Part shown: piece after piece, positions 3,193 through 19,969 of the stretch
Numbering within the stretch: position 1 is the first letter of the stretch
Layout: the number at the start of each line of letters is the position of its first letter
NCBI RefSeq assembly: GCF_000011125.1
Contig: NC_000854.2
Location: 750,001-782,000, forward strand
Direction of reading: 5' to 3'
DNA: 32,000 nt
DNA from: Aeropyrum pernix K1
Lineage (GTDB): Archaea > Thermoproteota > Thermoprotei_A > Sulfolobales > Acidilobaceae
Notes under the pieces: generated by a model
Databases searched by the model: none
The model's input: only the letters and a program-made list of their open reading frames with translations
Told to the model about the DNA's origin: nothing
Position numbers and translations under genes: made by a program

Positions 3193-3391
3193 TGAGTCTA
3201 CCCTATCTTGCTAATAGGGCCCATGACTGATATATCAATGTAGCTGGTTAAACTCGTTAATTTATGGTCAAACTTTCAAATAAAACCCGAAATATAGGAG
3301 ATATTTAACTAAAGAATAGAGACAAAAACTACTGGAAAGAGTATAAAAGCTAGAAACATGTATTAGCCTCTATTTCTCGGGTAGCTTAAGC

Positions 3392-4642
3392 TTGGCTGGG
3401 AGTGTTTTTGTTGTTCTTGCTGGCGGTAGGGGGGAGAGGCTTTGGCCTGTTAGTGAGACTAGGGCTAAGCCTCTCGTCCCTATCTTGGGGGAGCCTCTTG
3501 TTTGTAGGCATTTGAGGCTGGGTTTGGCTACGGGGTTGTTTGACGAGGCTGTTGTTCTCGTGGGCTATCGTGGTGGCGAGGTTGTTGAGGCTGTTAGGGC
3601 GTGTGGGTTCGGGGGTGTGAGGTTTGTGGAGCAGGGGGGTGCGCTGGGGACTGGGCATGCTGTGAGGCGGGTTTTGGAGGAGCTTGGTGGTGAGGGTGTG
3701 TTCACCTTTGTCTATGGTGACGTGTATCTGGACTCGAGGTTTTACGGGTTGCTGGCGTCTGCTGAGGCTCCCTCGGTGCTGGCGGGGTGGGTAGAGGATG
3801 CGAGGTGGTACGGGCTCCTGGATGTTGGGGATGGGCTTGTCCGGGGGGTTGTTGAGAAGCCCAGGGAGCCCCGGGGGGGCTGGGTTTTCCTGGGTGGTTT
3901 CAAGGTTGACGGCAGCTTCCTGGGCCTGCTGAGGGGGCTTGAGCCTAGCCCCAGGGGTGAGGTTGAGGTTACCGATGCGCTCGAGGCTCTCGCCCGGGAG
4001 GGTGTTCTCCGGGCTCTGGTGGGAGGGGAGGGGTGGGGCTGGGTTGACGTGGGGAGGCCTTGGGACGTTTTGAGGGCTAACCGGATGGCGTTCCACGACC
4101 CCCAGTTTAGCGGCGGGGTTGAGGGGGAGGTCCACTCCTCCGCGGTTCTCGAGGGGGATGTGGAGAGGATCTATATAGCCCGGGGCGCCAGGATCGGGGC
4201 TCACAGTGTGGTGGAAGGGCCGGCCTACATTGGCCCGGGGGCCCGTGTGGGGCCTGGGGCGCACGTCAGGGGTTACACGGTCTTGCTGGAGGGTGCTTAT
4301 GTGGGTTTTGCGAGCGAGGTCAAGGCCTCCGTGATTATGGAGGGTGCTAGGGCCCCCCACCTCAACTACGTTGGAGACAGTGTCGTGGGGGAGCATGTTA
4401 ACCTTGGTGCGGGCACTGTGACGGCTAACCTGAGGTTCGACGGGAGGAGTGTGAGGATGACGGTGAAGGGGGAGAGGGTTGACACTGGTTTGAGGAAGCT
4501 CGGCGCAGTCATAGGAGGCTACGCCCAGACCGGCATTAACGTGTCGATCATGCCGGGGGTGAGGATAGGGCCGAGGGCCCTGGTGTACCCCGGGTGTGTT
4601 GTGGGGAGGGATGTGGGGAGCGGGGAGGCCTTCAAATGCTAG
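3392..4642 (+). CDS. Sugar-1-phosphate nucleotidyltransferase fused to a left-handed beta-helix acyltransferase domain (archaeal GlmU/ST0452-like)
   Basis: N-terminal VVLAGGRGERLWPVSETRAKPLVPI is the G-x-G-x-R-L NTP-transferase signature. The C-terminal half contains imperfect hexapeptide repeats (IGxxxxVG...). TTG start. Lies upstream of glmS. Confidence 0.85.
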   Translation: MAGSVFVVLAGGRGERLWPVSETRAKPLVPILGEPLVCRHLRLGLATGLFDEAVVLVGYRGGEVVEAVRACGFGGVRFVEQGGALGTGHAVRRVLEELGGEGVFTFVYGDVYLDSRFYGLLASAEAPSVLAGWVEDARWYGLLDVGDGLVRGVVEKPREPRGGWVFLGGFKVDGSFLGLLRGLEPSPRGEVEVTDALEALAREGVLRALVGGEGWGWVDVGRPWDVLRANRMAFHDPQFSGGVEGEVHSSAVLEGDVERIYIARGARIGAHSVVEGPAYIGPGARVGPGAHVRGYTVLLEGAYVGFASEVKASVIMEGARAPHLNYVGDSVVGEHVNLGAGTVTANLRFDGRSVRMTVKGERVDTGLRKLGAVIGGYAQTGINVSIMPGVRIGPRALVYPGCVVGRDVGSGEAFKC

Positions 4643-6712: not shown

Positions 6713-7804
6713 TTGGAGGCCGTGGTCTTAGCTGGGGGTGTGGGGAAGAGGCTGCTGCCCCTAACCCGGGAGAGGCCGAAGCCCTACCTACCCCTTGCGG
6801 GTAAACCCCTCTACATGTACGCTGTGGAGCAGGTTGCAATGGTGAGGAGCCTGCTGGACAGGGCTGTCATGGTCACCCCTCCCGGCCACCCCACTCCCCC
6901 CGGGTCTCTGCCGAGCTGGCTCGACACGGTGGAGCAGCAGGGCGAGGGTGTGGAGGCGGGGTTGGCAACGGCGCTTAAGAGGCTGGGGGGTGGTGAGGAG
7001 GTTGTAGTCTCCTTCGTGGGCTATCTGGCCAGGCCCAACACCCTGGTTAGACACGTGCTGGACTTCTACAGCGTAACCCGGTACAAGCTGGTTCTAGCCC
7101 TCGCACCCGTGACCAGGGGTAGCGAAAGCTTCGGGTTTGTAGACGCCGACCCCTCCACCGGCAGGGTGCTGGGGTTCTCGGGCAGTAGGGAGGAGTGGAT
7201 GGCGGGCCGTGGAAGGGTGTTCGCCGGCGTACTGGCGGGCGACCCGGAGGCCCTGGAGGTCCTCGCTGGAGAGGGGTTTGTGGAGGGCATAAACACACTT
7301 GCCAGGAGGGGGCTGGTGGGGAGTGTGGTGTGGCCGGGTGAGTGGCTGGAGGTAGGCTATCCCTGCGACCTGCTGGAGGCGCCGAGGCTTGTGGTGGAGG
7401 CGTGGGCCGCTGTGATCTCGGCGAAGGCCCGGGTGGCGAGGTCCTCAGTAATCCAGGGAGGGGTCGTTATTGAGGAGGATGCCGAGGTGGGGGAGGGGGC
7501 GGTCGTAGAGGGGCCCGCCTACCTAGGCAGGGGCGCCGTTGTGGGTAGGAACAGCGTGGTGGGCCCCGGGGTCGTGCTGGAGGAGGGCGCAGTAGTGGGT
7601 GATCTCGTGTCGATAGAGAGGTCCGTCATGCTGGAGAGGGCTGAGGCATCGGGCCCCTCGAGGCTCGAGGGCGTTGTGATAGGCGACGGGGCGTACATAG
7701 CACCCCTCGCAGCAGCCACAAACCGGGAGGGCTGCACGGTAGTAGCGCCGAAGACGAGGTTAGGGCCTAGAGCAACGCTAGAACCCGGAAAAACATACAC
7801 CTAA
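6713..7804 (+). CDS. Second nucleotidyltransferase/left-handed beta-helix protein (paralog of 3392-4642)
   Basis: VVLAGGVGKRLLPLTRERPKPYLPLAGKPL NTP-transferase signature with a C-terminal hexapeptide-repeat region (VVIEEDAEVGEGAVVEGPAYLGRGAVVG). TTG start 42 nt after the glmS stop. Confidence 0.8.
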   Translation: MEAVVLAGGVGKRLLPLTRERPKPYLPLAGKPLYMYAVEQVAMVRSLLDRAVMVTPPGHPTPPGSLPSWLDTVEQQGEGVEAGLATALKRLGGGEEVVVSFVGYLARPNTLVRHVLDFYSVTRYKLVLALAPVTRGSESFGFVDADPSTGRVLGFSGSREEWMAGRGRVFAGVLAGDPEALEVLAGEGFVEGINTLARRGLVGSVVWPGEWLEVGYPCDLLEAPRLVVEAWAAVISAKARVARSSVIQGGVVIEEDAEVGEGAVVEGPAYLGRGAVVGRNSVVGPGVVLEEGAVVGDLVSIERSVMLERAEASGPSRLEGVVIGDGAYIAPLAAATNREGCTVVAPKTRLGPRATLEPGKTYT

Positions 7805-8004
7805 CAAGACGGAACACAGGCCGCCAACCCGGGTTCACCCTTAACTTCTATTTGCCGCTTGAGGTCCTCGCTCGCCACATTCACGAGAACAGAATCGTCC
7901 AGACTATACCAAAAGCAGAGGAACCGAATGATGTAGTTTCTTTTCCATATTTAGACTCCTACTCCTATTAACCTGAGCTCAATAGAGGCTCTGCCTCATG
8001 ACTC

Positions 8005-8241
8005 TTGTATGTCCTCCTAACTCTCCAAAATCGTTTCGCTTCTATCAAAAACAAGGATGAGGAGGTTCGTGTGTACAGAAGAGGACTCTACAATGTTTTG
8101 AGGAGATTAGGATTAGTGGAAGAGATCGATATAGAACAAAGGGATTTAGTAGTGCTTGATAAAACATTAGCTGACTTAACAGACGATGAATTTGAGCAGT
8201 TCTTAGAAGGTCTGAAACAAGTGCTGGCAAAACAAGAATGA
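8005..8241 (+). CDS. Hypothetical small acidic protein
   Basis: The only support is an ORF in the low-GC island. It has a TTG start (alternative GTG at 8071) and no recognisable motif. A TTTT follows the stop. Confidence 0.3.
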   Translation: MYVLLTLQNRFASIKNKDEEVRVYRRGLYNVLRRLGLVEEIDIEQRDLVVLDKTLADLTDDEFEQFLEGLKQVLAKQE

Positions 8242-8677
8242 GCTTTTATCCACAATGATTTAGTGATCTAGTAGTGGGACTGGAGAAAGATAGACTAGAC
8301 GCCGCGCACTGTTTTACTTTAGCCAAAGATATAAGTCTTTTTACTGCGAGGAGTTTGCCATCTACTGATGTTCGGAGGCCTATCTGTAATTTAAACTACT
8401 TGAAATGAGATGAAACTAGCTACATCACTGAGGATAAAGAATTTGTTAATGGAAAAACGGAAGTAGGGGCTCAGTCTAGTTGGGGGAGTATTAGCTTTAT
8501 TATATGGTATGTAGCGGTATCGGAGAGAGGAGGCGTTTTTGCTTTGCATTAGCTCTTATGGTGTCGGTGTCATAGCACTCTGAAAGTATCGCTGTCAACA
8601 AAGCTAGAAGGACTAGATAATTGAGAGAAGCTAGACAAAAGGTTTATAGAAGTAACAGCCAATAATGAGCCATCTTC

Positions 8678-9475
8678 TTAGAGTTTGACTAGTTTCACTG
8701 TTTCGACTGTTGCTTTTAGGAATTGGGAGAACCTAGTTACTGCGTGCGCTATTAATCGTGCCTCTTCTTCGGCTTCTATGCACGGGGCGATTCCTAGCGC
8801 CTGAGTCGCTGTTTTCTCTGTGACTTCCTCAGATTTTAGTAGGTGGAGTATAGGTGCATTTCCATGTATGATTTGGGATAGTAGTCTGTAGTCCTCTCTT
8901 AGACTTTCGACGATTTCACCTGCCAGCTTGTCATCTCCGACCATGAGTTTGAATGTGTCTTCGAGGCAGTCTACTGAGATTATGCATCTCTTTCGGCAGG
9001 CCTGCTCACTTCTCTCGCGACGGCTGAGGCGTCTTAGGTCTTCGAGCCCGAACATCTCAAGTCTTGTGTTCAATGGGAGGTCTCTGCAGCGGGGGTGGAA
9101 ATCTAGTATCAATGCTTTCTCCAGGTATTCCAAAGCTATCCTCAAAAGCACGTATGCCAGTTCGGATACGCACAAGAGCCCTACCGCTTGAACCCCTATT
9201 ACATACCTAGGCAGAATATTGTTGACATAAAACAGGTAGACCGAGTCTTCGCGACCCCAAGGCTTCTCCACCTGCAGCGCATCCTGGAACACCCCCCATA
9301 AATCCTCTAGGGCCTCAGCCAACAGCCTGATATGTTCACGGCTTCTCAAGGTGCCGCTATCCACGTTGTGTATCCAGCCCATCTGATCCAATACCATATG
9401 CTTAGCACTCTTCAGATTTTCTACCAGTATTACAAAGTAAGAATCATCCTTACGAAGATCGTCATCCTCTTTCAT
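8678..9475 (-). CDS. Hypothetical 265-aa helical protein, possible HEPN/Abi-like; paralog of the core of 11487-13202
   Basis: ATG start preceded by GGAGG. Contains AYVLLRIALEYLEKAL and YRLLSQIIHGN (R-x6-H). It is collinear with residues about 190-450 of the 571-aa protein. Confidence 0.7.
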   Translation of the reverse strand: MKEDDDLRKDDSYFVILVENLKSAKHMVLDQMGWIHNVDSGTLRSREHIRLLAEALEDLWGVFQDALQVEKPWGREDSVYLFYVNNILPRYVIGVQAVGLLCVSELAYVLLRIALEYLEKALILDFHPRCRDLPLNTRLEMFGLEDLRRLSRRERSEQACRKRCIISVDCLEDTFKLMVGDDKLAGEIVESLREDYRLLSQIIHGNAPILHLLKSEEVTEKTATQALGIAPCIEAEEEARLIAHAVTRFSQFLKATVETVKLVKL

Positions 9476-9591
9476 GCCTCCTACCCAGTATTTTGTATTT
9501 TACTCTGTAAACATCTAAATTAGTGTTTGCATAGTGGGAAGAAGACTAATACGCACATTCCACTATTTTCGTTGTTGACAGGTGACCTGCT

Positions 9592-9789
9592 ATGGGTTTT
9601 CTCGGAGATCTCGTCCTAGACGTAGACCCGCCCTTCGTGGGTGGGGAGCATAGGCTGCTTAGGAAGAGTGTTAGGGAGTTCGCCGAGAAGACTGTCAGGC
9701 CTAGGGCCAGGGAGATAGATGTTGGGAACCAGTATCCCCGTGACCTCCTGCCCGTGCTGGCGGGCTGGTGGAGACAGGCTTCAGGGTAG
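9592..9789 (+). pseudogene. Acyl-CoA dehydrogenase, N-terminal fragment (about 60 codons)
   Basis: GEHRLLRKSVREFAEKTVRPRAREIDVGNQYPRDLLPVLA matches the ACAD N-terminal helical domain. The match ends abruptly and the frame stops. The fragment is GC-rich, unlike its flanks. Confidence 0.75.
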
Positions 9790-9848
9790 GCCGCTTGCAC
9801 CTATAACTAGCTCTGAACTTTTCTCTGGATGAATTATCACGCATGATT

Positions 9849-10274
9849 CTATGGTATCTGTTTGAAATCGTTGTCTAGTGTTAGGATTTCTTTTATTTCT
9901 TCTCTTTTCATGATTGCTACTGTTAGAGCGTCGCTCGGTAGTAGCTTGTATTCTAGCGATATTTTCATGCTTTCTCTGAAGTCGCTGTAGGTTGGTGGGA
10001 TTATATTCAGCTTTTCAGCTATCTTGTCGAGTGCAGCTAGTCTAGCTCTAATGGTGTCTTCTGCAGCACCCTTCTCAAACAGTTTTCCTATCTTGTAGAC
10101 ACTTACAGGCCCCTCCGATTCAATTATGGAGAGGGCTATTAGCTTGTACGCTGCCTCCTCAAGGAGGTGGGTCGAGGTGTAGGGTTCTGTTCCTATTAGG
10201 TACTCGAGAAGGCTGTGTTCTCTGTTGAATATTATGCGGATGAATATGTTAGCGTCAACGAAGAGCCTCCTCAA
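9849..10274 (-). CDS. vapC: PIN-domain ribonuclease toxin VapC
   Basis: N-terminal RRLFVDANIFI (Asp7), EEAAYKL, PSDALTVAIM and C-terminal LTLDNDF supply the PIN acidic residues. The TTG start overlaps the upstream antitoxin gene by 20 nt. Confidence 0.9.
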   Translation of the reverse strand: MRRLFVDANIFIRIIFNREHSLLEYLIGTEPYTSTHLLEEAAYKLIALSIIESEGPVSVYKIGKLFEKGAAEDTIRARLAALDKIAEKLNIIPPTYSDFRESMKISLEYKLLPSDALTVAIMKREEIKEILTLDNDFKQIP

Positions 10275-10476
10275 GATATAACTCCTCCACTAGGTCCAGC
10301 AGCTCAGCCTTACCCTTAGGGAGTTCTGAAAGGAAGTCCACTAACTCCCGGTAATCCTCCTCCCCGAAAACTCTACGCCTAATAACAACCTCAACCTCCT
10401 CCCCCTCACTTAACACCAAGGGTTCTAGGGGTTTCAGCACACCCCCCTCATACTTCACACGGATAACCTTAGACAT
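10255..10476 (-). CDS. AF2212/DUF104-type antitoxin (VapB-like)
   Basis: MSKVIRVKYEGGVLKPLEPLVLSEGEEVEVVI is the characteristic DUF104 N-terminus. I place the start at ATG 10476 rather than the track start at 10494. The gene overlaps vapC. Confidence 0.85.
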   Translation of the reverse strand: MSKVIRVKYEGGVLKPLEPLVLSEGEEVEVVIRRRVFGEEDYRELVDFLSELPKGKAELLDLVEELYLEEALR

Positions 10477-10640
10477 AGCACACCCCCAACCCATAAAAAA
10501 GGTTTAGACCCCCTAAGCCTTTATCCTAGCATGCTGCACCATCCTCCATTATGATACAAAGCTTAGATTATCAAGATGTCGGGCGTGCTACATTATATCG
10601 TGCATTCATTAACATTTGTTTAATTTATCTTTGTTCTCAG

Positions 10641-10680
10641 GGGCAGGAGGGTCTGGCTTCAAATCTCGGTGGCTCCACCC
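10641..10680 (+). other. Degenerate tRNA 3'-half-like remnant (T-arm plus 3' acceptor strand); possible old att site
   Basis: CTGGC-TTCAAAT-CTCGG has a canonical T-loop and 4 of 5 stem pairs (position 53-61 is a C-C mismatch). It is followed by TGGCTCC-A-CCC. No matching 5' half lies upstream. Confidence 0.25.
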
Positions 10681-10731
10681 TAAGTTTATACTTGAACGTG
10701 GCATTTTGCGAATGTTGCTAGAGCAGTATTG

Positions 10732-11231
10732 AGGCCTAGGGTTCCAGCGCCATCCAAGACTCCACCAACAGCCTCAGCAACGTACCTCCTGGCGGCCACC
10801 TACCCCAAACCCTACCGGGGTATGGCTAGAGCGTTCTCGGTTGAAGCTAGGAGGTGGCTTACGAGTGGAGCCTCTCCAGCATGTCCTTCGGCAGGCCCAT
10901 ACACCGGCTCCAGGCAGTCCGCTTCCAGATCGTCGACATGGCGGTCAAGACAAGGTCGATGAAGACTCTAGCATACACGGCAGCCAGGCTCAGGGACCAG
11001 GGGGACCCGAGGTACGTGTGGATGGCCTCAGCAGCTAAGCTCCACGCAAGCATAGCTGCGAACGAGATAGCAGCCGCCGCCGTGAGAATCCTAGGCGGCC
11101 TGGGCTACGTGAAAGAGTCGACGGCGTAGAGGGTGTACAGGGACGCCAAGCTCCTGGAGATAGGCGAGTGGACGAACGAGATCCAGAGGTGGATAATGGG
11201 GAAGATGCTCTACGGCGAACTATCCCCCTAA
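10732..11231 (+). pseudogene. Acyl-CoA dehydrogenase, C-terminal fragment with a frameshift and an in-frame TAG
   Basis: FGRPIHRLQAVRFQIVDMA...ASAAKLHAS...ILGGLGYVKESTA-TAG-RVYRDAKLLEIGEWTNEIQR matches the ACAD C-terminal domain. There is an in-frame stop at 11127-11129 and a frameshift near 10850, where frame 1 switches to frame 3. Confidence 0.8.
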
Positions 11232-11423
11232 ACCCCGGTTTCCCCTCTAGGCGCATGCGCAAACCACATCCAACACTCTCCTATTCCGTCTAGGCAGGTA
11301 TGCTCAGTCATCCCTGTATCCCCCTCCCTTTCCTCGTGTCGATCCTTGAGGCTGCCTCCACAACGGAAATGCCATGGGCAATACAAGCTACCCACAGATC
11401 ACCAATATGTATATGGTCTGAGC

Positions 11424-11457
11424 TCTCGGCGTGGGCCCGAGACACTCTGGGTTTTTT
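11424..11457 (+). terminator. Hairpin plus T6 run downstream of the ACAD remnant
   Basis: TCTCGG (11424-11429) pairs with CCGAGA (11437-11442). A TTTTTT run follows at 11452-11457. Confidence 0.25.
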
Positions 11458-11486
11458 GCATCAACCGCTGAAGCCGTATCTTCGCA

Positions 11487-13202
11487 TTGTTTTGTTTGTT
11501 ATTTATCGTTCGAGAGTTTGGAGCGAGATGTGCATCTATATCACATTATGTTGAATTTATTTATGATAAATGCCACGATATTTCAAATGGTGGACGTATA
11601 GTGGGTAGATACTTCGGTTTCCGGGAGCTATACCCAAAGTACCCCGTTCAGCTAGCCACTCGACGCGACTCTAAAATAAGACTCGGTACCAGGCAACTCT
11701 ATGTGGATGTTCCCTTTCCAATCTACCATCATTACATTCGTTGGTGGATGTACCACGAGGGGATCGGCGATAAACAGGAGAACCTGGACGTAATACAACG
11801 AATAAAAGATGACTTGAATAAGGAGCTCGGAGACAGGTATTCTAGCATTTACAGCGTTGAGGGACCAATTGAGAGAGGGACAGGCAAACCATTCATAAGG
11901 CTACGGATTAGATGGGACAAGCTGATAGACTACCTAGAATGGAGAGCTAGGGATTGGGTCGAGGATGTAAAAAGAGTTAGTGTAAATCATGTAGGAAGTA
12001 TTATTAGAGATTTATACGTTAATGACATTATATGTAACTATATAGGATTGTTATTATTAGTAAACATTGAGAGGGCTCTAGACCTGTTATTATCCAAAAC
12101 CTTTAATATGGGATTAGATGAGGAAGTCCAAAGGTATAGGAAGCTGTTATCGAGGCTAGGAGAAATAGATCATATTGAGGAGCTTGTTGAGAGGTTAAGA
12201 AGGGCTATCGAGAAGATATATAGGTCAGAAAGACGTCGCCTTGCAGGCCTACAAAAGGATGTTGTTTCCATGGACAAATTGATAATATCAAATTTAACAC
12301 TAAACATTAACGATATAGTTAGTGCGGTCTATGATGTAAATATTGGTTATGCCTATCTCAACATGAGGAGATCCATAGAAACACTAGTTAGGCTCTTGTG
12401 CTTCTACAGAACACTTGGTAACAGATCTTTATGTCCTGCAGGCCGTAGAAGCCGGAGGGAGACGGAGATTGAGATTGAATATTGTTTCTCAAACGAAAAC
12501 GACGAAGATATATTGTTTAAAGCATTTGCTCACTCTGCTAAAAACCTCTATGGAATAGGGATCAGTCTAAATATCCAGAATTTACAAAAACTTGGCGTGG
12601 AACCTCGTCACGCTGAGGACCTGAAGCGAATATACTCGATAGCTAGTGAGGTGATCCACCGCATTCCCAGGCTGCCGTTCTATTCTCTTCTCGAGTTTAA
12701 GGTGTTTAAACATGTGTTCAGGTGGTATGTGGAGACTGTTGAATCAATCGCTGGTACGGCGACTGTAAGTGAGGAGGTTGAGCATGATGTGTGGGGTAGG
12801 CTAGAGCTGGAGCAGCACGCTGTCCATGAAGCGGTGAGAATTGTTAGGGATAACAAACGAGACGTTATAGAGGCGTTCAAGGAAGTTGTACGGGGGTTGG
12901 ATGAGAGGGATTTGGAGTATCTTAGGCTTGCTGCTTATCTGTCGCCTAGCAGGGCAACCCTCGAGAAGGGCTTACTCCTGGAGGAGGAGTTTCTGGAGGC
13001 TCTTGAGAAGGCCTCACGCCAGCTCGGCAGCCCAGCTAGCCTGATATTAAGCCTGGCCGCTGATAGGCTGAAGACCGTTAGCATTTTTATGGGGGAGAAA
13101 CTTGTTGAGAAGGGCATAATAGCCTCCGGCGACCCCGACTACGCGGCTAAGGTGGCCTTCTATACACTCCTGCTAGCATTGGGAGAAGGTATACTGTTCT
13201 AA
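11487..13202 (+). CDS. Hypothetical 571-aa protein with an N-terminal unique region, a core paralogous to 8678-9475, and a GC-rich helical C-terminal extension
   Basis: Long uninterrupted ORF in very AT-rich DNA. It shares ordered motifs with the 265-aa protein at matching spacing (HIxxLxExL; AYxxxRxxxExL; SxxIH). The start is uncertain (TTG 11487 or GTG 11601). Confidence 0.75.
   Translation: MFCLLFIVREFGARCASISHYVEFIYDKCHDISNGGRIVGRYFGFRELYPKYPVQLATRRDSKIRLGTRQLYVDVPFPIYHHYIRWWMYHEGIGDKQENLDVIQRIKDDLNKELGDRYSSIYSVEGPIERGTGKPFIRLRIRWDKLIDYLEWRARDWVEDVKRVSVNHVGSIIRDLYVNDIICNYIGLLLLVNIERALDLLLSKTFNMGLDEEVQRYRKLLSRLGEIDHIEELVERLRRAIEKIYRSERRRLAGLQKDVVSMDKLIISNLTLNINDIVSAVYDVNIGYAYLNMRRSIETLVRLLCFYRTLGNRSLCPAGRRSRRETEIEIEYCFSNENDEDILFKAFAHSAKNLYGIGISLNIQNLQKLGVEPRHAEDLKRIYSIASEVIHRIPRLPFYSLLEFKVFKHVFRWYVETVESIAGTATVSEEVEHDVWGRLELEQHAVHEAVRIVRDNKRDVIEAFKEVVRGLDERDLEYLRLAAYLSPSRATLEKGLLLEEEFLEALEKASRQLGSPASLILSLAADRLKTVSIFMGEKLVEKGIIASGDPDYAAKVAFYTLLLALGEGILF
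11556..11570 (+). promoter_or_regulatory. TATA-like element upstream of an in-frame GTG at 11601
   Basis: ATTTATTTATGATAA lies about 35-45 nt upstream of GTG 11601. This suggests the real start of the 571-aa ORF may be 11601, not 11487. Confidence 0.3.
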
Positions 13203-13286
13203 CGTCGGCTCTGAACAGGAAATATAGGTTAACTGTACTTAACCAGCCTTTAACCTCCGCCGATCCAACTAAACCCAACGGAGAAG

Positions 13287-13670
13287 GTGGAGAGCTTGGT
13301 TAACGGCCGATCCACGGATCACCGTTTTGACAGAGAGAAAATTGTTAGAAGGGCGGACGAAATAGCCGGAAAACACGGCCTACTGAGTCATAGGCTTCGA
13401 ATACTGATACTGGCAGCCACTGCCGCCTACGGAGAAGCATCGTGGACCAGCCTGAAAACGATTCTAGAAAGCCTGCTGGGCCCAGTGAACCCGAACACAC
13501 TCGCATTCCATACTAGAAAACTAATGGAGGCGGGGCTACTGAGAAGAGCGGGGTCTCTCGAATCTCCAGTGTACATGCTGGCTGAAGAGCCTGATAGAGA
13601 GATCGCTGAGCTCGCGAAAGAGATGGAAAAGCTAGTTAAGCCCACTAGACAGGGGAGCGAGGAGCCCTGA
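13287..13670 (+). CDS. Winged-helix (ArsR-like) DNA-binding protein
   Basis: HRLRILILAATAAYGEASWTSLKTIL...NPNTLAFHTRKLMEAGLLRR fits a helix-turn-helix plus wing pattern. GTG start preceded by GGAGAAG. It lies 84 nt downstream of, and co-oriented with, the 571-aa gene. Confidence 0.75.
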   Translation: MESLVNGRSTDHRFDREKIVRRADEIAGKHGLLSHRLRILILAATAAYGEASWTSLKTILESLLGPVNPNTLAFHTRKLMEAGLLRRAGSLESPVYMLAEEPDREIAELAKEMEKLVKPTRQGSEEP

Positions 13671-14157
13671 ATACTTATCAGGTAGTCCAGGATTAAAAAC
13701 GAGCGGTTGTAGTTGTAAAGTAATTTAGAGGAGTCGTTCTGCTGTCGAACTCTGGAAAATAGGGCTCTTCGGAAGAGGGACGAGGGATTCATCATGAGGG
13801 GTATCTACAGCTTTCCTAGGATACTACTTCAACGTTATAGAAGAAGGTGATCTCTAGCTAGAATTCGTTATGAAGCTGAATCCCGTTCCTGTTAAAGCTA
13901 AGGATAACTCCGAGGAAAGCCGCTGACGTGAGGGTTGTAGGCCTTAGAGAGGGTTGAAAACAATGTTAGAGAGCCCATTGCTGACGCCTCCTTCCTTGAT
14001 ACTAGGTAGCTACTATAATGAGACCGATACTATAGAGCTGCTCTAGTCGATTAAAGACGAAAGAGATAGCCATGCTTTAGAGTTAATGTAAGGCTAGGTT
14101 TCACTGTTGTTAACGATTAGCTCTTGCTAGTTCTTCTGGTAGCGTTTATATAGCTGC

Positions 14158-17100
14158 ATGGGCTGGGACAAAATTGTAATCGGGTTCCCAGTATTGCGCC
14201 TTCCCTATTTTGCACCTGCTATGCTGGTTTTCCTAATTCTTCTCCAGGGTTTTCCTGGGGCTCTGGCTTCCGGCTATTCTTTGTCTGGCGGCGAGGACCT
14301 CGGCGGGTATGGCGGCTATCCTGCGCCGCTTGCTATGCTTGTGGATTCTCTTGGGGAGGAGGGGCTTGGGCTGGGCGATCTGGAGGCTTTGGGTGTGGCG
14401 GTGCCTGTTGTGGTTTATCTCGAGCCTTGGGCCGATGCTGGGGCGCTTCTGGAGGAGTATGGGGGGCTCGTCTGGCTCTACAGGGGGCCTCTGGTCTCGC
14501 TTGTGGGGGGTGCGCTGGGTGTTGAGGACCTCCTGAGCCTCGCTGGCGAGCCGGGTGTTTCGCTGGTCGTGCCTGCGGGGCCTCTCAGGCCTGTTGCCAA
14601 GGCCGAGGAGCTCCCTCCCGACGTTCCCCGGAGGGCCCTCGGTGCCGTGGCCTCCGCCTCCACCGAGGGCGGGGTGGTTTATGACAGGCCGCTACGGCTG
14701 ACGGGGGCCTTGGAGGCCTGGGAGATGGGGTATCGCGGCGAGGGGGTTGTGATCGGGGTTATAGATACGGGGGTGGACTTCTCGGGGCCGGGGCTGGGTG
14801 AGGATAAGATCGCCTTCTCCCCCGAGGGTCTGCCCCTTATCGTGGACTACGGCATGGTTTTCCTGGCCGCACCCCTCTACGTCGAGGTGGACCCCGACTC
14901 GGGGTCGGGGGCTGTGGACTTCCAGGGGCTCTACACCGTGGAGGCGGGACCCGCTGGCGTTGGCTTGCTGGTGAAGAGGAGCGGGGGGTTCGCCTCCATC
15001 GCATACCTGAGCCCTGAAGGGGGCTACTCCAGCGGCTATGTTGAGTACAGCCTCGAGCCCCCGGTGCTCCCCCAGGAGGTTGTGGATGCCGCCCTGCAGG
15101 GAGGGGCGCCGCCTAGGTACGGTTTGGCGGTGTCCGAGAACATGGCCTACACCCTGGACGGCGGCCTACTCTGGTACAGGATGACTGTGCCCGGGCTGGT
15201 GGCCGACGCGGACGCCGACGGGCTTTACGACACCATCTACCTTGACGCCTCCACGGCTGTCTACCACCTGGCATCCGCCGCCAGGCAGGCGGGCCTCACC
15301 CTCTACCCCGCTCCATCAGCGGCGGACTACAGCTTCGAGGGAGAGAAGCCCGTAACCCCCGCCTCCCCACTGGCGGGCTACGACGCCCGGGGCGACGGGG
15401 ACATAGACCTCCCTGTGGGGGCGCTGGCAGGCTACACAGTAGACCTGAGCGGCGCGGCCCTGGGGATGGCCACCGGCATCCTCGGCGAGATGGCGGCTGG
15501 CCTCCCCGAGGGCGGCGCCACCCTATTACCGACGGAGGACCTCCCAGCGGGCTACCTGCTGCCGGGCATGGACTTCTGGCGGGGGAGCTACGCGGTGTTC
15601 CACACCGACGATGACGGCCACGGCACCAAGGCCGCCTCCACCGCCGCCGGCAGGGAGTTCATCTTCCGGGCCGAGACGGGCCTGGGGTTGGAGGTTAGAA
15701 TGCTGGTCTCGGGCACCGCGCCCGAGGCGAGGCTGGCGGCGAGCTCCTTTTACATCTACGAGCAGGCCATGCTGACCCTAACCGGCCACGTAATGGTAGA
15801 CGCCGGGACGGGTGAGCCCCTATGGATCCCGCCCTGGATGGGGGGCGTGGATCCTTGGGATAGGCTAGACCCCAGGCTCAACGGAGGAGGGGTCAAGGCG
15901 GAGTGGGCCTGGACTGGCACCCCCCTCGTCGACCTAACCACTAACAGCTGGGGCATATCCTCCCTACAGTACTATGCGGATAAACCTCTGGGCCTGGAAG
16001 AGGTTAGCCTCTTCATAGACTCGATAACGCTGGAGACGGGGGTCCCCCACTTCATAGCCGCGGGCAACGGCGGCCCCGGCCTAGGCACCGTGACGGCGCC
16101 GGCCACAGCCAGGCTCGCAGTGGCGGTGGCGGCGGCTACTGACATGGCCTACCTATCCCTCATTCAGCCAGGCTACCTCCCCCTCCTGGCAGGCCTCGGG
16201 GGCTACGGCGACCCAGCATACTTCTCAGCAAGGGGGCCAAGCCACGCCGGAGCCCCGAAGCCGGGGCTCGCCGCCATAGGGGGGTTCGCGTACACCACGG
16301 GGCGGAGCCTGGACCACTACACCGGGGGCAGGCTGGACCCCCGGGCGGCGCCCCTGCTCTTCGGCGGCACCAGCATGGCCACGCCGATGGCGGCGGGGGC
16401 CGCTGCCCTGGCTATACAGGCGTTGAAGGAGAGCCTAGGTGTTGAGAGGCTCGGGCTTGAGGAGTGGCTGAGGGTCTACACAGCACTCTCCATGACCGCC
16501 CAGTGGAGGGGGCTACCCTGGGGGGAGATGGGCAATGGGATCGTGGATGCTGCTGGGGCGATTAGGCTGTTGACGGGCGTCGACCAGGGTGTTCTCATCT
16601 ACTCGGCCACCATATTAGAGGAGGCTGCGGGCCAGGCGGGAGTAGCCGCCCCCGGCTACGGCATCCCCGCGCTCCTGGTTTGGGCGGGGAGCGGTGTCGA
16701 GACCCCGGTGGATATCGTGCTGGAGGGCGAGGGGCCGGTGGCCCTGAAGGCGGTTGAGCCGAGGCTCGAGGTCACTGTGAGGTCCTCGGTCGAGATAGAC
16801 CTGTCCAGCCCCGTGGGGGAGAGCGGCTACTACACGATGTACAACGCGGCCTCCATAGACCCCAGCATGCTGCCCCAGGGGCCCGTTGAGGTGTCCCTAA
16901 CCCTCCCGTACGAGGTTTTCGACAGGCAGGGCAGGGAGAGGACCTCGACGTGGTGGGAAGGCTACGTCTACGGCGTCCTAGCCCTCCTATACTGGGCCGA
17001 CCTGGACGGCGACGGCCTAGGGGATGACGGGGAGTTCTACATCCTCTCCATAGACAAGAAGTCCTCAAACGTGTTCAGAGTATTCCTCTCCAACGCCCAG

Positions 17101-18282
17101 GAGGCGCTGGCGGGGGCACGCGAGGCCCTAGGCTGGAGTGAGGGGGTGCGGGAGGAGGTCGTCCTGAGGCTGGCCCTGGCAGGCCTCTCCTGGGCGGGCG
17201 GCACTACGAGGGCCACGGTGGAGATCGCCGCCATCTCGTGGGTGGAGAGCAGCGCGCTATCCCTCCCCGCCACGGTAGAGGTTGAGGGCGAGGCTGTGGT
17301 GGAGGCTGTTGTGAACCCTCCGGAGCCCGGAGTCTACACGGGCTTCATAGTAGCCTCGACCGGGGTCGGGGAGTATAGGATGCCCTACACCATACTCAGC
17401 CCCTACAGGCCCAGCCACACAGGGGTACACGTCCCCCAGGGCCTGGGGCCCGACGAGTACTATGAGGAGGCCTGGGTCAGGGGGGCCTTCGACTACAGCT
17501 GGTGGTACGAGGACGGGGACTGGAGGATAGTACCCCTCGAGCTCCCTGGCCCGGGGTTGGCGGTGGCGAGGCTCCACTGGCCCGTGGAGGATGGTAGGGA
17601 GGCCTACGCCACCAACATAGACGCCTACCTATACCTCAACAGGCCCTCCATCACCGTGAGTGAGGCGGGGGAGGTCGTGGTTGGAGTGGAGGAGATGGCC
17701 CTAGCCTCCAGGGAGGCGTCGGCCGCGAACAGGTTCTTCGACCCCACCCTAACGGGGTTCTGGGACCAGCCTGGCTCGGGGCCAGGGGAGACTGTGCTCG
17801 CAGCCTACAACCACGCCCCCGGCAGGGTCCTTCTAGTGTACAGGAGTGTGCAGTACAGCGGCGAGACGGCCCGGCAGCCCGTGGTGATAACCTTATATCA
17901 TACACCGGTATCGACGCGGGGCACCCTAGCCACCGGCGAGACGACGCTGGCCTCAGTCTCCATGGCCTCCCTCTACAGGCTAGGAAACCACGTCTCCACC
18001 CCGCTGGGAGCAGGGGTAGAGGCGTACCACCGGGAGGGCGGCTGGGCCCTACCACCCCCCGGGGCCTCTGCCAGCGTAGAGGCGTACCAGGAGGCCCTGG
18101 GCGGCCACGTACTCCACCTCTCCATAGCGGTGGCACTACCCGAAGAGCCGGTGCCGGAGTCGGTGCTGGTGAGTATAGACCTGGGCCTATCTATTCCTAG
18201 GATGAGCAGCGGCCTAACAGTGACAGGTGAGGCTGAGAGGGTTGAGAGCGAGACAATCTACATTACACTACCCACGGGCTAA
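14158..18282 (+). CDS. Secreted giant subtilisin-family (S8) serine protease
   Basis: Signal-peptide-like N-terminus. The catalytic triad motifs are VIGVIDTGVD (Asp203, nt 14764), DDDGHGTKAAS (His488, nt 15619) and GGTSMATPMAAGAAALA (Ser739, nt 16372). NSWG supplies the oxyanion Asn. Confidence 0.92.
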   Translation: MGWDKIVIGFPVLRLPYFAPAMLVFLILLQGFPGALASGYSLSGGEDLGGYGGYPAPLAMLVDSLGEEGLGLGDLEALGVAVPVVVYLEPWADAGALLEEYGGLVWLYRGPLVSLVGGALGVEDLLSLAGEPGVSLVVPAGPLRPVAKAEELPPDVPRRALGAVASASTEGGVVYDRPLRLTGALEAWEMGYRGEGVVIGVIDTGVDFSGPGLGEDKIAFSPEGLPLIVDYGMVFLAAPLYVEVDPDSGSGAVDFQGLYTVEAGPAGVGLLVKRSGGFASIAYLSPEGGYSSGYVEYSLEPPVLPQEVVDAALQGGAPPRYGLAVSENMAYTLDGGLLWYRMTVPGLVADADADGLYDTIYLDASTAVYHLASAARQAGLTLYPAPSAADYSFEGEKPVTPASPLAGYDARGDGDIDLPVGALAGYTVDLSGAALGMATGILGEMAAGLPEGGATLLPTEDLPAGYLLPGMDFWRGSYAVFHTDDDGHGTKAASTAAGREFIFRAETGLGLEVRMLVSGTAPEARLAASSFYIYEQAMLTLTGHVMVDAGTGEPLWIPPWMGGVDPWDRLDPRLNGGGVKAEWAWTGTPLVDLTTNSWGISSLQYYADKPLGLEEVSLFIDSITLETGVPHFIAAGNGGPGLGTVTAPATARLAVAVAAATDMAYLSLIQPGYLPLLAGLGGYGDPAYFSARGPSHAGAPKPGLAAIGGFAYTTGRSLDHYTGGRLDPRAAPLLFGGTSMATPMAAGAAALAIQALKESLGVERLGLEEWLRVYTALSMTAQWRGLPWGEMGNGIVDAAGAIRLLTGVDQGVLIYSATILEEAAGQAGVAAPGYGIPALLVWAGSGVETPVDIVLEGEGPVALKAVEPRLEVTVRSSVEIDLSSPVGESGYYTMYNAASIDPSMLPQGPVEVSLTLPYEVFDRQGRERTSTWWEGYVYGVLALLYWADLDGDGLGDDGEFYILSIDKKSSNVFRVFLSNAQEALAGAREALGWSEGVREEVVLRLALAGLSWAGGTTRATVEIAAISWVESSALSLPATVEVEGEAVVEAVVNPPEPGVYTGFIVASTGVGEYRMPYTILSPYRPSHTGVHVPQGLGPDEYYEEAWVRGAFDYSWWYEDGDWRIVPLELPGPGLAVARLHWPVEDGREAYATNIDAYLYLNRPSITVSEAGEVVVGVEEMALASREASAANRFFDPTLTGFWDQPGSGPGETVLAAYNHAPGRVLLVYRSVQYSGETARQPVVITLYHTPVSTRGTLATGETTLASVSMASLYRLGNHVSTPLGAGVEAYHREGGWALPPPGASASVEAYQEALGGHVLHLSIAVALPEEPVPESVLVSIDLGLSIPRMSSGLTVTGEAERVESETIYITLPTG

Positions 18283-18367: not shown

Positions 18368-19969
18368 GTGAGGCTTCGGGCGTCTAGGCTGTTCGCCTCG
18401 TTCTTCCTGGCTTTCACCCTCCTGGCCGCCCCGCTTGCGGGGGGCGGTGCTGCCGGGGCCCAGCCCTCGGCTTTTGTAGTGGGCCCCAGCCCCACGCCCC
18501 CTGTGGATATTGTGGTCTGGCTGGGCGGGTTCGAGCCCTACGATGTTGTGGAGGTATGGCTGTCAACCGGGGTTTCCGAGGTCCTGATAGCCACCCTATA
18601 CCTAGGCTCCGCGGGTGAGGGTGTAGAGCTCGTGGGCCTCCCCCGGAGTCTCGAGCCCGGAGTCTACACGCTCGAGTTTCGGGCCCTCTCAGGCCTCACC
18701 GCCTCTGCCATCGTAGAGGTTGTGGAGGCCACCATAACGCTCGACAAGAGCCAGGTGGGGGTGGGCGAGGTCCTCACGGCCGAGGTGGAGGGCCTGGGCG
18801 GTGGCGGGGTCTCATACGCCTACCAGCTTAGGATGGGGGGAGTGACCGTGGCCGTGGTGTATCCAGACGATAGCGGTAGGGCGGTGGCCAGCTTCACAGT
18901 ACCACCCCTCCCAAGCGGAGTCCATACTGTGGAGCTGGTCTACACGCCGCCCCTCTGGCTCAGGTTCCAGAGCATTTACGGGGGAGAGGCGGTGCTCGCC
19001 GCCGCGGAGGTTGAGGTGGCCGACGGTGTCGCTACAATCGGCGGGGCCAGGGAGATAGCAGAGGAGGTGGCCTCTGCTTACGTCGCCCCCCTTGAGGAGA
19101 GGCTTAGCCTGGTTGAGCAGGCCGTGGAGGACCTCGGCCTCGCTCTGGACAGCCTCGAGGAGAGGGTTGGGGACCTTGAGTTCGCGGTGGAGGACCTCAC
19201 CCTACAGCTATCCAGCCTAGACTCCAGGGTCGGGGCGCTGGAGGATAGAGTGGCGGATATTGAGGGTAGGCTGGAGGCCGTGGAAGGCTCCCTAGAGGAC
19301 CTCTCGGGCGCTGTGGATGCTATGAGCCAGCAGCTGCAGGCCCTTGCCGAGGACCTGGAGAGCCTAAGTAGCAGGGTCGAGGACCTCGAGGCCAGGGTGG
19401 GCAGCGTCGAGGATAGGCTCTCCCAGGCCGAGGAGGATATAGACAGCCTCACCACCAGCCTCGACAGCCTCAGGACAGAGCTCGAGGACCTCTCCACCAG
19501 GCTAGCGGAGGCCCAGGCCAGCCTGGAGGACCTCAACACAAGGCTAGACCAGGTAGCCTCAACTCTGCAGCAGCTCCAGCAGAGGCTCGCCACTGCAGAG
19601 GAGAGCCTGCAAGCCCTCACCGAGGACCTGGCCAGCCTCCAGGCGGAGGTGGAGACCCTACAGCAGTCCATCGTTGAGATAGACAGGAGGCTAGGCCAGC
19701 TAAGGAGCACCGTTGACGCTGTGAGGCTCGAGGTAGAGAGTCTCGGAGAAAAGCTGGTCCAGGCGGAGGAGAAGAACCAGAGGCAGGACGCAAGTATCGA
19801 GGACTTCCAGAGCCAGATCCAGGAGCTCAGGACCCAGCTAGATGAGAAGACCAGAGAAGCCCAGCAGACGGCCAGCACAGCCAGCCGCTGGAGCATGGCG
19901 GCGGCTGGAGCCTCACTCATAGCCCTAGCAGCAGCCGCAGCAGCGATAGCAAGAGTGTTGAGAGGCTAG
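18368..19969 (+). CDS. Surface stalk protein with signal peptide, about 200-aa beta-rich head, 36-heptad coiled coil and a C-terminal TM anchor
   Basis: N-terminal RLRASRLFASFFLAFTLLAAPLAGG signal. The heptad register is unbroken from L242 to E493 (nt 19091-19846). The C-terminal hydrophobic segment is WSMAAAGASLIALAAAAAAIARV (nt 19889-19957). Confidence 0.85.
   Translation: MRLRASRLFASFFLAFTLLAAPLAGGGAAGAQPSAFVVGPSPTPPVDIVVWLGGFEPYDVVEVWLSTGVSEVLIATLYLGSAGEGVELVGLPRSLEPGVYTLEFRALSGLTASAIVEVVEATITLDKSQVGVGEVLTAEVEGLGGGGVSYAYQLRMGGVTVAVVYPDDSGRAVASFTVPPLPSGVHTVELVYTPPLWLRFQSIYGGEAVLAAAEVEVADGVATIGGAREIAEEVASAYVAPLEERLSLVEQAVEDLGLALDSLEERVGDLEFAVEDLTLQLSSLDSRVGALEDRVADIEGRLEAVEGSLEDLSGAVDAMSQQLQALAEDLESLSSRVEDLEARVGSVEDRLSQAEEDIDSLTTSLDSLRTELEDLSTRLAEAQASLEDLNTRLDQVASTLQQLQQRLATAEESLQALTEDLASLQAEVETLQQSIVEIDRRLGQLRSTVDAVRLEVESLGEKLVQAEEKNQRQDASIEDFQSQIQELRTQLDEKTREAQQTASTASRWSMAAAGASLIALAAAAAAIARVLRG

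Follow-up and report, generated by a model that had tools for sequence, protein, structure and literature searches.

An unnamed archaeal protein family that includes APE_1210.1 of Aeropyrum pernix K1, with the nearby APE_1209 as a possible divergent copy of its core

Stand-alone abortive-infection genes are known in or next to type I restriction-modification (R-M) loci, PrrC in the EcoprrI locus being one example. The other described systems with which the present locus can be compared are the HEPN ribonucleases, the VapBC toxin-antitoxin (TA) modules and the Pfam domain DUF5677, which is reported to be enriched beside serine recombinases in the defence islands of Bacillota (PMC12632615). Archaeal defence repertoires are still mostly 'dark matter'. 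Here we report that the gene APE_1210.1 of the model hyperthermophile Aeropyrum pernix K1, which lies within a stretch of 32,000 nucleotides (nt) that we analysed as a whole (NC_000854.2, positions 750,001 to 782,000; hereafter the window), is an intact member of an unnamed and patchily distributed archaeal protein family, and we weigh whether APE_1209, a second gene of the same stretch, is a divergent copy of the core of this family.

The core consensus of the family aligns with DUF5677 from a helix that carries a conserved arginine and glutamate (the R-E motif) to a histidine motif (the H motif) with an E-value of 1e-5, and four member cores match independently, but the family adds an N-terminal domain, a PF-SLLE-K extension and a C-terminal domain. 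With the HEPN ribonucleases it shares an apparently helical build, R and H residues that look essential, an R-N dipeptide that is often seen, and an occurrence in defence islands or near TA modules, whereas it lacks the Rx4-6H motif, its R and H stand about 100 residues apart, and it has an extra invariant E and K. As with PrrC-type genes, the family gene may be found directly after or beside hsdR/M/S (metagenomic loci L019 and L014) as a single gene with no dedicated partner, but it is unrelated to them in sequence, carries neither an ATPase nor an anticodon-nuclease domain, and shows the association in only some loci. Finally, a VapBC module lies between APE_1209 and APE_1210.1 in the same mosaic of AT-rich DNA, and TA pairs also neighbour relatives of APE_1210.1 (L019); however, the module is a separate insertion and no component of a system with the two genes, and the trio recurs nowhere else among the loci compared.

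An earlier note on the window, made from its sequence alone, had singled out a 571-amino acid (aa) orphan at 11487-13202 and a 265-aa protein, and both open reading frames (ORFs) are indeed present at those places. The larger one is APE_1210.1 (BAA80199.2), and the same gene is found in RefSeq as WP_148679014.1, where it is called at 533 aa. When the protein was compared exhaustively with 1.84 billion cluster representatives using phmmer, 57 relatives were recovered, 31 of them at E<1e-10, the best with an E-value of 1e-77 (46% identity) and the next with 1e-73, so that the word orphan no longer applies. A pattern scan of metagenome contigs located the family at 61 loci. What passed for an ORFan of a model hyperthermophile thus becomes a defined family of about 60 cluster representatives that occurs at at least 61 metagenomic loci. 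Outside A. pernix its members come from metagenomes and metagenome-assembled genomes (MAGs) only, several of them hydrothermal, and we found no literature on APE_1209 or APE_1210. Word-seeded homolog searches with APE_1210.1 or with the family profile gave self matches only, and none of the 57 relatives came up in the word-indexed search of 5.8 billion proteins, even when a 31-sequence profile was used. Since those relatives were missed, the 'no homolog' outcomes of the word-indexed search, including the one for APE_1209, are weak negatives, and searches of this kind can mislabel proteins such as APE_1210.1 as orphans.

The gene and its parts are listed below. Residues are numbered in the 533-aa scheme, and adding 38 gives the numbering of the earlier note.

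11601..13202, forward strand: APE_1210.1 coding sequence, 533 aa plus stop, with a GTG start that is supported by homologs
11487..11600, forward strand: upstream extension of 38 codons with a TTG start, probably not translated and reached by no homolog
11601..12050, forward strand: conserved N-terminal domain, residues 1-150, with the motifs FPxYP, RxGxRxIYVDxP and VNWxxFxxYLE
12243..12800, forward strand: helical core, residues 215-400, distantly DUF5677-like
12345..12392, forward strand: R-E signature motif, residues 249-264, GYAYLNMRRSIETLVR, with R256 invariant and E260 kept in 96%
12621..12704, forward strand: H signature motif, residues 341-368, LKRIYSIASEVIHRIPRLPFYSLLEFKV, with H353, E365 and K367 invariant
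12801..13199, forward strand: C-terminal helical domain, residues 401-533, absent from short forms of about 390-410 aa

The relatives P0003 and P0007 begin with MGKFLGV and MGRSLGF, which are aligned to VGRYFGF at the GTG at 11601 (the starts MGKFLGVREYYPEYP and MGRSLGFRALYPKYP line up with VGRYFGFRELYPKYP of APE_1210.1), and the alignment with the relatives runs over the full length, from residue 1 to the C-terminal FYxLL motif. Because the relatives begin exactly at this GTG, we take the first 38 residues of the 571-aa call to be spurious and the protein to be 533 aa long, and the length given in the note must be corrected accordingly. A TATA-like A/T-rich stretch that can be read at about 11556-11571, inside the 38-codon extension, would as a promoter fit a start at GTG 11601.

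In the N-terminal domain, P12, D36 and W105 are kept in all or nearly all of the members that cover them, and Y139, near the end of the domain, is essentially invariant. This domain had no match in Pfam, PHROG or PADLOC. It is separated from the core by a helical linker in which the family alignment places the motif FxKLLxxTGD. In the core, the R-E motif follows the pattern YxxLR(N/R)xLE and the H motif the pattern LYxxCSE(I/V)IHNxxPLPFxSLLExKxFK; besides the invariant or nearly invariant R256, E260, H353, E365 and K367, the residues S349, P359, S362 and L364 are found in more than 90% of members, and all of these are present in the A. pernix sequence. The claim that an undescribed family was at hand was well founded, the residues R294, E298 and H391 of the note being R256, E260 and H353. 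The insert between the R-E and H motifs differs greatly in length among members.

At the metagenomic locus L052 two family members lie 5.6 kb apart (7995-9644 and 15275-17524), one a canonical member of 550 aa and the other a divergent paralog of 750 aa (E 1.7e-8). The latter lacks the C-terminal domain, is extended at its N-terminus by about 290 aa, and keeps RYLYVDIP, ACYREMRKILE and YSHFVH...PFSSVLEFK. This pair indicates that the family is broader than the list of phmmer matches suggests and, as two copies stand at one locus, that divergent paralog pairs do occur in it. At five other loci (L060, L070, L076, L077 and L079) two adjacent ORFs were observed in place of one family gene. These split genes could be frameshifts, pseudogenes or assembly errors, and they suggest frequent decay.

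The family is uncharacterised, and its sole link to Pfam is a near-threshold one to DUF5677 (PF18928), itself an uncharacterised domain. The core consensus matches this profile over positions 22-152 of 166 with an E-value of 9.9e-6 and 26.2 bits, the gathering score being 27.1. When 33 member cores were searched in isolation, four matched DUF5677 (E<=1, best E 1.7e-5), while no other Pfam family was matched by more than one of them, and the full-length protein P0025 matched it with an E-value of 8.9e-4. The match starts a little ahead of the R motif, for the consensus as for P0025, and stops 2-3 residues past H. As it ends there, the span from R to H would be the unit held in common with DUF5677, and PF-SLLE-K a family-specific addition. 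We infer from these matches, which lie near the threshold, that the core is a remote relative of DUF5677. NCBIfam gave nothing for either protein, for the members or for the consensus, and a search of PDB sequences with profiles of the full and core alignments returned only coiled-coil and designed-helix noise.

The arginine and histidine of an apparently all-helical core, with an N frequently next after R (LRNxLE), a feature of many HEPN motifs, and the defence-like context of the family recall the HEPN ribonucleases, and the earlier note had tentatively put forward a HEPN assignment. Were the core such a domain, R and H would be expected to fall within an Rx4-6H motif, and no such motif is conserved: between R256 and H353, which lie on different predicted helices, the distance in the family is 97 to more than 150 residues, the residue five positions after R256 is H in only a few members, and R343 (R381 in the note) is not conserved. 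Models of HEPN catalytic domains, including those of the HEPN clan in Pfam, had no match among 31 members, 33 cores and the consensus at E-values of up to 1-10. The sole match to a model named HEPN was a weak one of HEPN_RES_NTD1 to the N-terminus of one member (E 0.13). At the level of motifs a HEPN assignment is effectively excluded, and we reject it as very improbable.

The relatives of APE_1210.1 lie in foreign-looking DNA, recurrently beside type I R-M genes, ATPases of the OLD/AbiEii and HerA types, BrxL, Mrr, TA pairs and integrases. At L019 (1-9632) the family gene follows a type I R-M operon (HsdM, HsdS, HsdR and a YgjP-like hydrolase) on the same strand, as its last gene, 21 nt downstream, and is itself followed on the opposite strand by a DUF3368/UPF0175 TA-like pair; at L014 it adjoins HsdR/M/S, and at L020 Mrr_N and SocA_Panacea genes are near it. 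At L011 (7100-11019) it is flanked by a ThiF (E1-like) gene and by a gene for a weakly E2-like protein of 222 aa (UQ_con, E 0.057), with BrxL, a DUF87/TraG-like ATPase and an integrase in the vicinity. The ThiF/UQ_con arrangement was also noted at L012, L013 and L062, and it may represent a defence cluster built on ubiquitin-like conjugation. In a set of 143 ORFs that neighbour the family gene at about 30 loci, ResIII (4), HSDR_N (3), AAA_21 (3) and DUF87 (3) were the Pfam families seen most often, followed by SWI2_SNF2, N6_Mtase, AAA_15, DUF2813 and SMC_N with 2 each; the remaining families, ordinary metabolic genes among them, were singletons. No conserved partner gene was found across the loci. 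At about 21 of 31 loci the guanine-plus-cytosine (GC) content of the family gene falls short of that of the rest of the locus by 2 points or more, and some copies are carried by contigs of 299-651 kb.

Because the relatives recur beside restriction, ATPase, BrxL and TA genes in variable AT-rich contexts, we favour a role of the family in conflict or defence, as the earlier note had supposed when it spoke of defence or addiction; the neighbourhoods that we collected are consistent with such a putative role. The same contexts might be read differently, the family serving its mobile carrier, such as an integrated plasmid or a virus remnant, for instance in replication, partition or integration, and not the defence of the host. 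Several loci (such as L005 and L008) hold only small genes without a Pfam match, which is typical of archaeal mobile elements, an integrase and a TraG/HerA-like ATPase gene are near the family gene in L011, and the composition is AT-rich and foreign-looking. However, IMG/VR viral contigs and GenBank phages yielded no member, nucleotide and tblastn searches of phages and plasmids gave nothing useful, and PHROG had no match; no partner genes or element backbone are common to the loci, the A. pernix island is without att-like repeats, tRNA or integrase, and in L019 the family gene closes a type I R-M operon. We regard a service to the carrier element as unlikely.

The reading that we favour, tentatively and as a whole with slightly less than even confidence, is that APE_1210.1 belongs to a family of conflict proteins with an R/E/H/E/K site in its core and that APE_1209 is a divergent copy of this core. 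APE_1210.1 lies in horizontally acquired AT-rich DNA and would be horizontally mobile itself, acting on its own as a conflict protein, in defence or abortive infection, whose N-terminal domain would recognise a cue. The R/E/H/E/K site of the helical core would be the active or ligand-binding centre: R256 and E260 share a long helix, H353 terminates a second helix on its C-terminal side, and a proline-rich loop leads up to E365 and K367; these residues may have a catalytic role. APE_1209 would be a stripped-down core that has kept the R-E and S-x3-H motifs, 92 residues apart, and in which the N-terminal domain and the PF-SLLE-K segment were either lost or absent from the outset. A bolder version, in which the family is a new single-gene anti-virus or abortive-infection system of archaea with a catalytic helical effector distantly in common with DUF5677, and APE_1209 its minimal stand-alone form, seems to us improbable as matters stand. 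If it were true, it would provide the first experimentally testable function for DUF5677. With R256, E260, H353, E365 and K367 as candidate active-site residues and an R-M/defence neighbourhood, the family is directly testable.

The place of APE_1209 in this reading depends on the following features.

8678..9475, reverse strand: APE_1209 (BAA80195.1), 265 aa, predicted all-helical, candidate minimal and very divergent copy of the core
9116..9163, reverse strand: R-E-like segment, APE_1209 residues 105-120 (ELAYVLLRIALEYLEK), 12.9 bits, reached by 6 of 3000 shuffles
8849..8902, reverse strand: H-like segment, APE_1209 residues 192-209 (LREDYRLLSQIIHGNAPI), 11.4 bits, reached by 2 of 3000 shuffles

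The earlier note had called the two proteins collinear paralogs on the strength of four short anchors, and its anchor strings, residue numbers and spacings (65 against 64 residues, then 97 against 92) are all correct. The part of the claim that exceeds chance concerns anchors 3 and 4, which coincide with the R-E and S-x3-H signature motifs of the family, motifs that the note, written without sight of the family, was in no position to recognise, APE_1209 having Y-x2-L-R-x3-E and then S-x3-H in the same order (AYVLLRIALEYL with R112 and E116, YRLLSQIIH with S200 and H204). Anchors 1 and 2 fall on non-conserved columns, scored -5.5 and +4.9 bits against the family profile and were discarded as chance. 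Against a profile from which the A. pernix sequence had been removed, APE_1209 scored 18.5+15.1 = 33.6 bits at anchors 3 and 4; anchors selected pairwise gave 0±7.3 with a maximum of 20.6 in 400 shuffles, and the maximum in 164 real ORFs was 18.5. The H-like segment matches the H motif of the family up to H+5, and HMMER aligns both motifs of APE_1209 collinearly with the family. The spacing of 92 from R to H is inside the range of the close subfamily. In the low-confidence single-sequence AlphaFold2 models of the two proteins, which are unusable as structures (predicted local distance difference test scores of 35.9 and 38.5), both proteins have R within a long helix and H where a helix gives way to a loop.

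A scan for the two motifs together gave APE_1209 24.3 bits, a score that was unmatched in 5000 shuffles (maximum 10.6), in sets of 185 and 205 real ORFs (maximum 6.2) and in 47 reversed family sequences (maximum 9.7), and that was second only to APE_1210.1 in the window; the strongest position-specific windows were, however, trimmed after the match had been seen, which is the first of a series of points that weigh against the reading as a whole. When blocks were chosen by conservation only (247-262 and 352-367), shuffled sequences reached the score of APE_1209 in 39 of 2000 cases and real ORFs in 20 of 592 (P about 0.02-0.03), and a test that counted identities gave 99 of 1500 (P about 0.04-0.07). 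Whole-sequence comparisons were never significant. BLASTP of APE_1209 against APE_1210.1 gave a best E-value of 1.7 on a different segment, and their Smith-Waterman score of 37 compares with 39.9±6.6 for shuffles. The profile-profile comparison that the note had proposed as a check came out non-significant: hhalign of the family profile with APE_1209 returned E-values of 0.072 and 0.022 and probabilities of 0.8-2.2%, over an aligned segment of only 19-22 columns at the H motif. The HMMER core profile scored APE_1209 at 3.6-4.4 bits, within the noise of unrelated ORFs, which placed it about 34th among the non-family ORFs of a six-frame set of 1505. The residues E365, K367, P359 and S362 are not conserved in register in APE_1209.

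Other points of the same kind concern the family itself. Housekeeping genes, and genes that Pfam does not recognise, are numerous among the neighbours, and the raw counts given above are small (2-4 of 143 ORFs). The DUF5677 score of the consensus stays just under the gathering score, and the A. pernix protein, its closest relatives and APE_1209 are without any Pfam match. DUF5677 has no known activity, it and PF18928 being mentioned in the literature only in passing, and the sole DUF5677 ORF that was tried for phage defence was not among the five reported active (PMC12632615). Neither PADLOC (PADLOC-DB v2, with a test set of both proteins, five members and the consensus) nor PHROG had a match for the two proteins, the members or the consensus.

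These comparisons leave much room for the view that APE_1209 and APE_1210.1 are unrelated ORFans of acquired DNA, that the likeness of their motifs is one of chance or composition and that only APE_1210.1 belongs to the family. A simulation that mimicked the procedure of the note by picking the best collinear 12-mer plus 5-mer anchors under BLOSUM62 gave a score of 44 for APE_1209 and of 44.1±3.3 for shuffles, essentially every shuffle yielding anchors of equal quality, so that anchor pairs of such pairwise quality are expected by chance. The E-value of 1.7, the hhalign probabilities, the rank of about 34th and the P values of 0.02-0.07 in the objective tests point the same way, and three of the five invariant residues are missing in APE_1209 together with all flanking blocks: the match could not be extended into the blocks that flank the two motifs, and the best placement of PF-SLLE-K within ±5 residues scored -9.2 bits (P 0.31). 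The roughly 100 residues that precede its R motif gave no profile match to the FPxYP/RxIYVDxP/VNW..YLE region, APE_1209 being without the N-terminal domain of the family, and no gene like it adjoins any other family member at the metagenomic loci compared. On the other hand, the residues that do match are the most conserved of the family (33.6 bits against a null maximum of 20.6), the two-motif score had no equal among shuffled, real or reversed sequences, the spacing from R to H is one that the close subfamily shows, and the predicted helix positions of R and H agree. We consider the two genes being unrelated a real though somewhat doubtful prospect. The homology of APE_1209 to the family core is plausible but unproven, and with the two short motifs and the precedent of L052 in view we lean slightly towards it; the statement that the family is present twice in one island keeps its plausibility to that extent and goes beyond what the whole-domain comparisons bear out. 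No relatives of APE_1209 were found in the word-seeded search, a weak negative, and the exhaustive search covered APE_1210.1 only. Relatives of APE_1210.1 escaped the word-seeded search although they exist, and its outcome therefore does not establish APE_1209 as an orphan.

Both genes lie in a mosaic whose other features are given here.

7800..14150, no strand: AT-rich mosaic of acquired DNA, bounded by native genes for an NTP-transferase and an S8 subtilase
9849..10494, reverse strand: VapBC-type pair, with the PIN toxin at 9849-10274 and the AF2212-like antitoxin at 10255-10494
9592..11230, forward strand: acyl-CoA dehydrogenase remnants, with an N fragment at 9592-9789 and C fragments at 10854-11129 and 11130-11230
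13287..13670, forward strand: winged-helix protein of 127 aa with weak HTH_20, ArsR and Csa3 matches

The GC profile of the mosaic ranges from 33 to 54%, for 60-70% in the flanks, and APE_1210.1 itself has about 43% GC where the flanks are above 60%. The order of the pieces is an AT-rich one with a 78-aa ORF and APE_1209, the GC-rich N fragment of the dehydrogenase, VapBC, the GC-rich C fragments and an AT-rich piece with APE_1210.1 and the winged-helix gene. In the VapBC pair the toxin (PF01850, E 3.6e-15) and the antitoxin (PF01954, E 4.9e-17) overlap by 20 nt, with the antitoxin gene upstream. The dehydrogenase remnants match Acyl-CoA_dh_N (E 4e-7) and Acyl-CoA_dh_1 (E 1e-16 and 2.7e-3), the two C-terminal fragments being separated by one internal stop; they have about 60% GC, as against 39-49% for the VapBC cassette, which stands in place of the middle of the dehydrogenase gene. 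The GC-rich ends of that gene thus part the two AT-rich pieces. The VapBC locus has the look of a metabolic gene in decay that has captured a TA module. It follows from this layout that APE_1209 and APE_1210.1 do not simply flank a TA module within one element, and at least three separate acquisitions at 7800-14150 are implied. The earlier note had placed two copies around a TA module in foreign DNA: the DNA is AT-rich and VapBC does lie between the genes, but the region is a mosaic and not one island. No convincing direct or inverted bounding repeats, tRNA, integrase or Rfam family were found at the mosaic, and a synteny scan with the flanking NTP-transferase returned only an Aeropyrum MAG with 49% identity and a rearranged context, which was of no help in delimiting the insertion.

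The gene for the 127-aa winged-helix protein lies on the same strand as APE_1210.1, 84 nt downstream of it, and no counterpart of it was found beside other family members at the metagenomic loci compared. The 78-aa ORF (8005-8241, forward strand) is in the most AT-rich part of the mosaic (39-40% GC), has no significant match and may or may not be a gene; no counterpart of it was found next to other family members. Downstream of the mosaic, a 1374-aa S8 subtilase (14158-18282, forward strand) is followed by a second protein of 533 aa (18368-19969, forward strand), with a long heptad-like coiled coil, a C-terminal hydrophobic tail and DUF7310, tropomyosin-like and FlaC-like matches, and the two may form a cell-surface pair. 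Elsewhere in the window, GC-rich ORFs of 336 aa (3386-4396, reverse strand) and 416 aa (3392-4642, forward strand) overlap almost completely on opposite strands, and only one of them is likely to be real.

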